From a candidate division WOR-3 bacterium (lineage in GTDB: Bacteria; Hydrothermota; Tepidihabitantia; B3-TA06), in contig JAFGSK010000071.1 in assembly GCA_016934635.1 (NCBI GenBank), forward strand, positions 1,294 to 65,293: a stretch of 64,000 nucleotides of DNA, in the 5' to 3' direction. Below are positions 42,939 to 50,861 of this stretch, piece by piece. Within the stretch, counting starts at the first letter, position 1. Every line of letters begins with the position of its first letter. The translations under genes were made by a program, and so were the position numbers. The notes beneath the pieces are model-generated. The model had not been told where the DNA came from. It made no database searches and worked only from the letters and a program-made list of their open reading frames with translations.

Positions 42939-45044
42939 GTGATCGGTTTCTTGCTGTGGGTATTTTCGGCGTGGGGCGCAGGTTCTCCGGATTTTACGGA
43001 TATGCCGGTACGCCGTTCTCCCTTATACTCCAGTAACTTTCAAATCCTGGACCGCTGGCCGTATGGTCCTGGGTTTTCAGTGCTCGTTAATACGGATACT
43101 ATCTTCTACGCCAACGGCGCCGTGCTTCAAATCGGCGAAATCAACGTACAAAGCGAGGTATCCTGGTTATCCGAGGTTGTCTTCTCAGGCCTTGCATATA
43201 CAATGGTTCGTTCAGGCGACAGGCTTTACGTTGCAGTAGACGACCAGGGGATTTCAATAGTTGATATTTCCTCGTTGGATTCACCAAAAGAGATATATCT
43301 ATTCCAGACCTCTGGACGAGTGTTTGGTCTTACTGTTCGTGGAGATACCCTTTATGCCACAATGGGTGAGGAAGGGCTCCGCATATACGACTGCAGCGAC
43401 CCTTACTGTCCGCAACTCCTCGGGTCCCTGTTCGGGTTTAACCTTCGCAGCCTTGAGATGGATGCTAATCTGGTTTATGCGACCGACGTAAGCATAGGGC
43501 TGATGATGATTGATGTTTCCGATCCCTCCAGCCCGGACTCAGTTTCAAGTTTGTCTCTTACAGGACAGCACTATGGACTGGCCTTGGATACCTTGCGTAA
43601 AGAGGCCTGGGTTTGTTCTTTTGACGGCTGGTTGAACGTAGTGGACGTTTCTGATACTTCTGACTTTGAACTCGTTTCTACCCTTCCGGTGTTTGCGGCC
43701 TGGGCGGTTGATATTGAATACCCTTATGCTTATGCGGTTTCATGGAACGATTCTATGTACGTGTTCGATGTTGAATCGCATGACGCGGTCAGCGTAATGA
43801 GTCTCGATACACTGGGTATTACTGGTGTATGGCCTTATTCGATCTCAGTTGAAGATAACTTGGCTGCAGTATCAGGATATCTTGGAGGATGGTGGGTTTT
43901 TGATTGCGAAGATCCGGCAAATCCTGAGGTTACCGACGGCAGATTGCATGGAGGTATTTCCCAGGAAGTGTCGGTTAATGAAGATTGGATAGTCCTGGGT
44001 TTGCAAGCAGGAAAGATTGAGCTATTTTCGAAAGTGGGGCATCTTGAATCCGAGGCTTCGCTTAACATCTTGGACTGGCCCCAGGATTTTATTATCCAAA
44101 ACGACAACCTCTTTGTTGCCGAGAGCTGGGCAGGGTTTTCCTGTTATCGATTACCGGGTCAGGATTCAGATACTATAGAGTTGATTTTTCGTAAAGGATT
44201 CACGAGGATATACGTAAATGCCTTAGCCATTGGTGATTCATGTGCATACCTGGCATGTCGGGATTCAGGCATCGTGGTTGTTGACATGAGCAACCCCATG
44301 TTACCCCAGGAAGTTTCCCGGCTCAACCTGGATGCAAGGGTCATTTCCGTTCTTTTAGCAGGGAACGTGCTTTATGCAGGACTTGACGGAGGCGGCGTGT
44401 GGGAGATAGACGTAACGAATCCGGCAGAACCTGTGACCGTTCGTCTGCACCCGAGCTCAGGCACCGTACTTGATATGAGTTTGCAAGATGATATGAATCA
44501 GCAAGATGGATTGCTCTTTCTGGCTCAAGCTAACGAAGGCGTGGCCATCTACGATATTACAGATGTAAACTGGCAGTTTTTATCAGCTATTTCTACCGAA
44601 AACGTAGCCTTCGCATTGGAGCTTCAAGATGAAGTGCTTTTCCTGGCCGAGGGTTCGGCAGGTGTATCAGCCTACGATGTGTCTTCCCCGAACTTGCCTT
44701 CAGAACTCGGACGGTTAAATACAGGCGGCAGCGCCAGGGACGTTGCTTTAATAGGAGATACGGTAATGGTAGCCGACGGGTATGATGGTCTGATGAAACT
44801 CAGGTTTGGAAATCAAGGTGTGGAGGAGATTGAATTACCTTCTCCATCAGTCAAGGCTTTATCTAATCCTTTTGCACGCGAACTTCGGTTCAACCAACCG
44901 ATAGACGCTAATCTTTACAATGCCTGCGGTAGAATCGAAGCGCACATCACCGGAGAAGTGTTTGACGGGAGTCATCTTTTGTCCGGGGTTTACTTCGTAA
45001 AAGGCCACAGGTTTTGTTTGAAGGTCGTTAAGGCAGGGATCTGA
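42939..45044 (+). CDS. LVIVD-repeat beta-propeller protein with T9SS C-terminal sorting domain
   Basis: Repeated YATDVSIGLMMIDVSDPSSP / LVVVDMSNPMLPQEV / WEIDVTNPAEP units. C-terminus SNPFARELRF...LLSGVYFVKGH...KVVKAGI is like a T9SS CTD. Confidence 0.6.
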   Translation: MIGFLLWVFSAWGAGSPDFTDMPVRRSPLYSSNFQILDRWPYGPGFSVLVNTDTIFYANGAVLQIGEINVQSEVSWLSEVVFSGLAYTMVRSGDRLYVAVDDQGISIVDISSLDSPKEIYLFQTSGRVFGLTVRGDTLYATMGEEGLRIYDCSDPYCPQLLGSLFGFNLRSLEMDANLVYATDVSIGLMMIDVSDPSSPDSVSSLSLTGQHYGLALDTLRKEAWVCSFDGWLNVVDVSDTSDFELVSTLPVFAAWAVDIEYPYAYAVSWNDSMYVFDVESHDAVSVMSLDTLGITGVWPYSISVEDNLAAVSGYLGGWWVFDCEDPANPEVTDGRLHGGISQEVSVNEDWIVLGLQAGKIELFSKVGHLESEASLNILDWPQDFIIQNDNLFVAESWAGFSCYRLPGQDSDTIELIFRKGFTRIYVNALAIGDSCAYLACRDSGIVVVDMSNPMLPQEVSRLNLDARVISVLLAGNVLYAGLDGGGVWEIDVTNPAEPVTVRLHPSSGTVLDMSLQDDMNQQDGLLFLAQANEGVAIYDITDVNWQFLSAISTENVAFALELQDEVLFLAEGSAGVSAYDVSSPNLPSELGRLNTGGSARDVALIGDTVMVADGYDGLMKLRFGNQGVEEIELPSPSVKALSNPFARELRFNQPIDANLYNACGRIEAHITGEVFDGSHLLSGVYFVKGHRFCLKVVKAGI

Positions 45045-45103
45045 CATTAGTCAAGATTCACAACAATCGTATATACGTTACTCGAAAACCGGCTTCTACT
45101 AAC

Positions 45104-45131
45104 TTGACAAGCAGCTTAAAATCTATACTAT
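45104..45131 (+). promoter_or_regulatory. Sigma70-like promoter, TTGACA-16-TACTAT, upstream of the first paralog
   Basis: TTGACA at 45104-45109, -10 TACTAT at 45126-45131. RBS AAGGAGG before ATG 45191. Confidence 0.4.
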
Positions 45132-45190
45132 TTAGTTACAGATTAGTAAAGTACGAGAGGAATTATTAACGTAACCCCAAGGAGGTCTTT

Positions 45191-49021: not shown

Positions 49022-50785
49022 GTGAAGAGATGGATAGGTGTTCTACTGTTATTAGGCGTAACGCTTGCCTTCGGGCAAGTTTGGCAAGTGGAAGTCGTGG
49101 ATTCGAACTTCAATTCTGGAATGTTCGCATCTTTAGGGATCGATTCCAACAATCTGCCCCACATCGCCTACCTTTACACCCTGGGCGGTTCTCCGAGAAT
49201 CTCAACATTAATGATGCCCCAGGTAGACGGTGAACTCAGATATGCCCATTACAACGGTACGAACTGGATTACTCAGGTAGTTGACGATAATAACGGCGAC
49301 GGCCAGGTCGGTATGTTCTGTGGTCTTGCGATAAGCCCTGCTACCGACAGACCCCATATAGCATACTTCGATGCCTATAACGGTCACCTCAAATGGGCCA
49401 GGTTGAATGCAAACGGTTCCTGGACGATCGGTATCCCTGATCCCGATCCAACCGATTTCGTCGGTCTTGGTTCATCTATTATTGTCGACGAAGATGATAA
49501 CGCACACATCGCATACTACAATGTCGATTCTATGCTCGTACTTTACAGCACCCCTGACGGCAGCGGCGGATGGCTCATAGATACTATCGATTTCTCCGGA
49601 CCGGTTATGCCTTTTTCCTCGACGTCAATTGCCCTTGACGATATGGGTAACCCCCACGTAGCCTACTACATCGAAAACGATACTATAGGCACCGTTTTTT
49701 TGAAACACGCCAAGCTCATTACCGGTACCTGGATAATCGATACGGTGGAGTATCGGGTAGGTGACACGTTAGGTATCTGGCCCGATATCGAGATCGGTCC
49801 TGCATCGAACAACCTGCCCTATATAAGCTACTACGACTTTACCAACCAGTATATGAAGTATGCAAGATACAATTCCGTGAGCGATTCATGGGCTCTCGGA
49901 GTTGTTGAAAATACACCGGGAACGGGTTTGTTCGGTTCACAGGTTCTGGGATCATCTCACGCCAGCTATTACGATGCGAACAACGGGTTTCTCAAGTATG
50001 CCTATACCGACGATTATCTGGGTTGGAATTCGGAGGTCGTGGATAATTCCGCAAACGTCGGCGCATACTCTTCAATCGACCTGAGCTTCAAAGGAGTTAT
50101 GGCGTTTCCGCACATCGCATACTACGATATCGACAACGGGTATCTCAAGTACGCCACCAAGATCCTCAAGGATATGCTTCCGGTATCAATCGATAATCCT
50201 CCTGGCAGGGTATTCCCTGACTCCACATATTCGGTTCGGGCAACCATTCTCAACCAGGGAAACTCGGTATCCGCCTGTTCGGTATCGTGCAAGATCAAGC
50301 TGGGAACAGACGATGTATACATCGGCAAGGCATACACAGGAGCCTTAAACGTCGACCAGGAAACACAGGTGACTTTTAGCCCTCCTACATGGACTGCAAT
50401 CAGCGGTTACAATAATGTCTGGTATCATATACAGGTTGAGACGGAGCTTGCAGACGACTCAGTTCCGGAGAATGATGTCCTCGTGGATTCGATATTCGCT
50501 ACAGACAGCCCTCCCGGTGTCACCGAGGGCAGGATACTTCCCCTTACTCTGGACCTACGGATAAGCTCCAATACCGTGATGTTATCTCTGCCGACTGCAA
50601 CGGCAGGAGATCTCTACATAGTGGATGCCGTGGGTCGTCGAATACTAACCTTACATGAAGGCATTCTGGATGCAGGTTACCATGATTTCTCACTAGCGAG
50701 AAGCGAACTGCCTAACGGAGTATACTTCGTCAGGTTCAGATCGCCTTCGGTTAATCTGATACGCAAGGCGGTACTCGTTAAGTAA
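49022..50785 (+). CDS. Secreted repeat protein, paralog 3 (GTG start; T9SS CTD)
   Basis: RBS CTGGAGG before GTG. MKRWIGVLLLLGVTLAFGQV. C-terminus GVYFVRFRSPSVNLIRKAVLVK. Confidence 0.65.
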   Translation: MKRWIGVLLLLGVTLAFGQVWQVEVVDSNFNSGMFASLGIDSNNLPHIAYLYTLGGSPRISTLMMPQVDGELRYAHYNGTNWITQVVDDNNGDGQVGMFCGLAISPATDRPHIAYFDAYNGHLKWARLNANGSWTIGIPDPDPTDFVGLGSSIIVDEDDNAHIAYYNVDSMLVLYSTPDGSGGWLIDTIDFSGPVMPFSSTSIALDDMGNPHVAYYIENDTIGTVFLKHAKLITGTWIIDTVEYRVGDTLGIWPDIEIGPASNNLPYISYYDFTNQYMKYARYNSVSDSWALGVVENTPGTGLFGSQVLGSSHASYYDANNGFLKYAYTDDYLGWNSEVVDNSANVGAYSSIDLSFKGVMAFPHIAYYDIDNGYLKYATKILKDMLPVSIDNPPGRVFPDSTYSVRATILNQGNSVSACSVSCKIKLGTDDVYIGKAYTGALNVDQETQVTFSPPTWTAISGYNNVWYHIQVETELADDSVPENDVLVDSIFATDSPPGVTEGRILPLTLDLRISSNTVMLSLPTATAGDLYIVDAVGRRILTLHEGILDAGYHDFSLARSELPNGVYFVRFRSPSVNLIRKAVLVK

Positions 50786-50807
50786 CGAAAGCTTTAAACC
50801 AAAAGAG

Positions 50808-50837
50808 AAAAGCCGCCCCGATGGGGCGGCTTTTTTA
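50808..50837. terminator. Strong bidirectional rho-independent terminator (AAAAGCCGCCCC-GAUG-GGGGCGGCUUUUUU)
   Basis: 10-bp GC stem, 4-nt loop, U6 on the plus strand. A-run/U-run symmetry also serves the convergent minus-strand TonB receptor gene. Confidence 0.85.
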
Positions 50838-50861
50838 CGTGAGTCAATAAAAGAGGTCGAA

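Follow-up and report, generated by a model that had tools for sequence, protein, structure and literature searches.

INTRODUCTION

Seven-bladed propellers are found among both enzymes and lectins. The enzymes considered here are those of the BNR_4 group, namely the GH145 α-L-rhamnosidase BT3686, the PL42 rhamnose-glucuronate lyase and the PL24 and PL25 ulvan lyases. BT3686 and the PL42 lyase FoRham1 are seven-bladed and extracellular, and GH145 and PL42 depend on specific histidine and arginine residues in specific blades (PMC8377490). The seven-bladed lectins PLL, PHL, BP39L and CV39L are stand-alone, soluble proteins. Of the fucose lectins, AAL is six-bladed, and RSL is assembled as a trimer from units of two blades each.

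Two further systems bear on the present locus. The type A cargo of the T9SS in the Bacteroidota/FCB (gingipains, TfsA/TfsB, mirolase) is laid out as a signal peptide, a head and one or more Ig spacers, followed by a C-terminal β-sandwich of ~75 aa that ends in a basic hydrophobic strand, and these systems include the sortase PorU. The second is ‘cluster 16’, an N-terminal domain of predicted fibrillar-adhesin-like proteins whose function was judged ambiguous (Monzon & Bateman 2022, PMC9210967). It overlaps BNR_4 by jackhmmer, its top structural match is integrin α and it carries the superfamily annotation of the fucose lectin 1IUB; its homologs number in the thousands, and it was not made into a Pfam family (PMC9210967).

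Here we analyze three adjacent genes in a 64 000-nucleotide stretch of DNA (the window) from a candidate division WOR-3 bacterium. An original prediction had seen in them a tandem triplication of T9SS-secreted proteins, a diversifying family built from a distinctive YYD repeat. The observation is confirmed and the interpretation is partly supported; the three copies are old and conserved, and the surface protein that they encode is of an ordinary kind. What we show by computation is how the genes are organized, how their products are modelled to fold, how widely the repeat family occurs, that T9SS parts are present, and that the paralogs are under purifying selection and diverge on one face of the propeller.

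THREE PARALOGS WITH A COMMON PLAN

The four predicted ORFs, those of the LVIVD protein and of the paralogs P1, P2 and P3, were all found at the expected coordinates on the + strand (Table 1). The paralogs have identical organization, in which a signal peptide is followed by seven repeats of ~50 aa, a CARDB-like Ig domain and a T9SS CTD. All three have MKRWVSVLL...AFGQ at the N-terminus and G[IV]YF[IV]RF...RK[TA]VLV[RK] at the C-terminus, and in P2 an insertion lengthens the B-C loop of blade 1 by 14 aa. P1 and P3 are 100% identical to JXM67_12945 and JXM67_12955, respectively (NCBI proteins, candidate division WOR-3 bacterium).

Table 1. Positions of the features in the window
Feature	Position	Strand	Description
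T9SS sortase PorU	23849..27691	+	1280 aa; Peptidase_C25 and own CTD; 17 kb upstream of paralogs
LVIVD protein	42939..45044	+	ORF, 701 aa
Promoter-like TTGACA-N16-TACTAT	45104..45131	+	5′ of P1; 10/12 matches, consensus match only
Paralog 1 (P1)	45191..46894	+	ORF, 567 aa; RBS GGAGGT 5′ of ATG
Sec signal peptide of P1	45191..45247	+	Residues 1–19, predicted cleavage AFG|Q; helix 2–16 in model
Seven-bladed propeller of P1 (predicted)	45248..46276	+	Residues 20–362; 7 repeats of 44–51 aa
CARDB-like Ig-fold domain of P1	46289..46615	+	Residues 367–475; β-sandwich in model
T9SS type A CTD of P1 (putative)	46664..46891	+	Residues 492–567; β-sandwich in model
Terminator-like hairpin	46955..46977	+	3′ of P1; 10 pairs, 9 G-C; weak T tract
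Paralog 2 (P2)	47098..48864	+	ORF, 588 aa; architecture as P1
Terminator-like hairpin	48890..48911	+	3′ of P2; G+C-rich
Promoter-like TTGACA-N16-TAGTAT	48939..48966	+	5′ of P3; 10/12 matches, consensus match
Paralog 3 (P3)	49022..50785	+	ORF, 587 aa; GTG start; architecture as P1
Bidirectional terminator-like hairpin	50808..50834		Common to P3 and convergent TonB-receptor-like gene

THE REPEAT AND ITS PREDICTED FOLD

The repeats of P1 have the consensus W.IETVD..VG.Y.SLALD..G.PHISYYD..NG.LKYA. A repeat HMM finds exactly seven in each paralog, each with an E-value of 1e-15 to 1e-22 and with the motif spaced by ~50 aa as had been described, and no further repeats anywhere else in the six-frame translation of the window. 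In the AlphaFold (AF2) model (pLDDT 92.2) there are 28 strands in residues 21–362 followed by two β-sandwiches, and the head of the paralogs is thereby modelled as a canonical seven-bladed propeller, as originally supposed. The nearest solved folds in Foldseek are CylK, the PLL/PHL/BP39L lectins, integrin α and the GH145 enzyme BT3686, all at 5–16% identity. No Pfam or NCBIfam model spans the repeat, with BNR_4 and DUF7253 matching single-blade fragments only. No familiar curated signature fits the repeat, as had been noted.

The lectins PLL, PHL, BP39L and CV39L have only 10–13% identity with the paralogs and no sequence-profile match, and unlike the paralogs they lack an Ig spacer or CTD. 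The fucose lectins AAL and RSL have weak profile links to the family: a profile of 104 sequences matches PDB 1iub at E = 0.0024, and a Chloroflexus relative matches the NCBIfam model of the Ralstonia lectin at 8.7e-4. They differ from the seven-bladed paralogs in their blade number. An approximate sequence of RSL gives a non-significant BLASTP alignment (E = 0.75) that is in register (HIxxY...WxGxxW), within which the arginine and glutamate sugar ligands of RSL become Ala/Ser and Tyr in the family.

How general is the repeat? The motif is not rare; it defines a very large family in Bacteria and Archaea, comprising 17 733 cluster representatives (50% identity) at E ≤ 1e-3 and 3198 at E ≤ 1e-30, and spread over more than 15 bacterial phyla and several archaeal lineages. 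The number of repeats per ORF is 7, 14, 21 or 28 in 72 of 89 ORFs; the remaining 17 mostly have 11–13 or 19–20, which probably reflects missed blades. The proteins that carry the propeller are always extracellular, and its blades come in sets of seven. It is fused to CARDB, PKD, Big_1, BACON, FlgD_ig, SdrD_B, CBM6/35 and dockerin domains, and is provided with lineage-specific surface anchors, these being the T9SS CTD, the PGF-pre-PGF of methanogenic archaea and, in anammox bacteria, the C-terminal region of the Kustd1514 S-layer family. The propeller also forms the tip of long adhesin-like proteins with many domains in other phyla. Cluster 16, as described, shares its three matches (BNR_4, integrin α and 1IUB) with the family studied here, and its proteins have long stalks where the paralogs have a single Ig domain. 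The repeat is very common yet uncurated and unstudied, and its family has no characterized member.

EXPORT DOMAINS AND THE T9SS

The glutamine that follows the predicted signal peptide (Q19) is invariant in 22 of 22 aligned family proteins, as in the ‘Q-rule’ of the Bacteroidetes. The CARDB match is just below threshold in P2 and P3 (22.4 bits for P3 against a cut-off of 22.7), and a profile of the orthologs matches PDB 2l0d, a ‘cell surface protein’, at 1.3e-4; both support an Ig-like middle domain. The tail is matched by TIGR04183 with E-values of 0.011 in P1, 7.1e-5 in P2 (22.7 against 23 bits) and 0.0046 in P3, all below the curated cut-offs, and Por_Secre_tail (PF18962) is found in 11 of 22 aligned family proteins, the best at 2.1e-7. 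These matches support the assignment of the tail as a putative T9SS type A CTD.

The paralogs share with type A cargo the order of signal peptide, head and Ig spacer and the terminal β-sandwich with its basic hydrophobic last strand. A PorU sortase is also present in both; that of the window scores 433.9 bits with NF033707 (cut-off 420) and 2.1e-59 with Peptidase_C25. It was the one T9SS core part searched for, and is expected to be the enzyme that removes the CTDs of cargo. What sets the paralogs apart is their WOR-3 host, a divergent, sub-threshold CTD and a head that is an uncharacterized propeller. T9SS is not mentioned in the small part of the WOR-3 genome literature that was covered.

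THE PARALOGS ARE OLD

Identity between P2 and P3 is 74% overall, the propeller (80%) and the Ig-like domain (81%) being closer than the CTD (48%). Therefore the ‘about 80%’ originally given is valid for the propeller only, and the region described as variable and Ig-like is Ig-like, but not especially variable. P1 is the more diverged, as had been noted, with 45–47% identity to the other two. Synonymous sites of P2 and P3 are saturated (pS 0.72), both the propeller and the Ig domain have a dN/dS of ~0.05, and the uncorrected pN/pS of the propeller is 0.17. A second WOR-3 MAG (RBin_337/GF359) contains a separate ortholog for each paralog, with identities of 84% for P1, 77% for P2 (P0016, GF359_10840) and 85% for P3 (P0031, GF359_10835), and in an NJ tree the clade that unites P1 with the single-copy orthologs from related genomes excludes P2 and P3. 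The paralogs are old and under purifying selection.

The differences between the paralogs are concentrated on one face of the propeller. Between P2 and P3, 49 of 70 positions are identical in the B-C and D-A loops, against 49 of 54 in the A-B and C-D loops (Fisher p = 0.007), and the same contrast is found for P1 with P2 (p = 0.02) and P1 with P3 (p = 0.013); the loops are assigned to faces by meander topology, and the identity of the ‘top’ face is presumptive.

This divergence, the adjacency of the three genes on one strand and the recurrence of tandem paralogs in other genomes (L013, L020, L023, L026, L037, L056 and L065) would all fit the original interpretation, taken as a recent tandem triplication under diversifying selection that gives a fast-evolving binding family. 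Set against the saturation, the low dN/dS, the distance of P1, the separate orthologs and the tree, a recent local expansion is very improbable, and so is a diversifying family.

THE LVIVD NEIGHBOR

The protein upstream of P1 is an LVIVD propeller protein as described (Pfam LVIVD 2.2e-18, 65.8 bits against a cut-off of 20.2). Its AF2 model (pLDDT 88.7, 56 strands) has a signal helix, 14 blades forming two seven-bladed propellers at residues 34–623, and a small C-terminal β-sandwich at 648–698 that is a weak candidate for a T9SS CTD (TIGR04183 E = 0.12). The top Foldseek matches are the tandem 7+7 propellers of Utp21, Utp12 and Aip1. Orthologs of 45–53% identity lie directly 5′ of the propeller gene at eight loci (five distinct gene pairs) in related WOR-3/Stahlbacteria contigs, and the ortholog GF359_03050 is named in UniRef as a T9SS type A sorting protein. 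The LVIVD protein is thus a conserved neighbor of the propeller gene within the close clade. If the paralogs were part of a surface coat, possible partners would be the LVIVD protein, with its two propellers, and the neighboring genes of glycan synthesis.

WHAT DO THE PROPELLERS DO?

We infer export, CTD cleavage, surface attachment and a binding function as follows. The paralogs would be T9SS cargo of this WOR-3/Stahlbacteria bacterium, exported by Sec with cleavage of the signal peptide at AFG|Q and directed to the T9SS by the type A CTD. PorU would then remove the CTD, and the protein would be released or attached to the cell surface, where it would present a seven-bladed propeller head on a CARDB-like Ig spacer. 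The propeller may bind ligands without catalysis, in the manner of a lectin or an adhesin and possibly in a multivalent way, and the loop differences on one face could give three different ligand specificities. We lean towards such T9SS-displayed binding heads, on the basis of the fold neighbors, the symmetry of conservation and the domain partners. Among 36 distant single-propeller sequences, residues with 85% or more conservation all fall at repeat-consensus positions, and across phyla no polar residue specific to one blade is conserved; the blade-specific conserved residues of close orthologs are mostly glycine, proline or aromatic. The same positions are conserved in every blade, without blade-specific polar residues, and therefore non-catalytic binding is most likely.

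The propellers could instead be surface glycan-active enzymes that degrade polysaccharide, distant kin of the BNR_4 group. BT3686 (5mul/5muk) is among the best Foldseek matches and the best of the enzymes, with a TM of 0.65 and the highest identity of the top matches (15–16%); NF052497, the model for this rhamnosidase, weakly matches P2 and P3; and PDB 4irt is reached by the ortholog profile at E = 0.14. One archaeal relative carries CBM6/CBM35, and the C-D turn (xxDGxxW in some blades) lies at what we take to be the place of the Asp box of the sialidase superfamily. Many distant family members pass the whole-protein cut-off of PF15892 BNR_4, and 8 of 22 aligned ones match it at E ≤ 0.01, but without any individually significant stretch and always in one blade of the model (~215–270 of 272); therefore these are summed single-blade resemblances. 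There is no BNR_4 match in P1, P3 reaches 14.5 bits against a cut-off of 27.3 and P2 is below it too, with no full-length HMM match in any paralog. Moreover, one strong motif is present in all seven blades of the paralogs, unlike the enzymes, the catalytic histidine and arginine of GH145 and PL42 have no conserved blade-specific counterpart, and no catalytic domain was seen as a fusion partner among the family proteins examined. An enzymatic role is thus rather improbable. A second alternative, which we regard as unlikely though less so, is that the proteins help to build an S-layer-like coat anchored through the T9SS and do not bind external ligands. The S-layer proteins TfsA and TfsB of Tannerella forsythia are T9SS-dependent. 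P1 is the syntenic ortholog of a single-copy gene in related genomes, in the conserved order DegT – LVIVD – propeller, and in one of the loci (L001) the LVIVD and propeller genes overlap by 4 bp; the locus adjoins glycosyltransferase, aminotransferase and acetyltransferase genes; and the strong purifying selection and the S-layer and PGF-pre-PGF anchors of the anammox and methanogen relatives would also be consistent with a coat. Yet the LVIVD neighbor is limited to the close clade, more distant orthologs standing alone amid housekeeping genes that give no functional hint, and the adhesin-tip position in other phyla is more what would be expected of a binding head than of a unit in a lattice. 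Binding and S-layer roles are not mutually exclusive.

PROMOTER-LIKE AND TERMINATOR-LIKE SITES

A terminator for each gene and a TTGACA promoter for P1 and P3 had been proposed, and G+C-rich hairpins and consensus-like sites are found accordingly (Table 1). The total numbers of such sites in the region are not above those of shuffled sequence (17 against 12.1 ± 3.1 promoter-like and 10 against 7.0 ± 2.8 terminator-like), but the top three hairpins and, of the five best promoter matches, two (10/12) sit exactly in the intergenic gaps.

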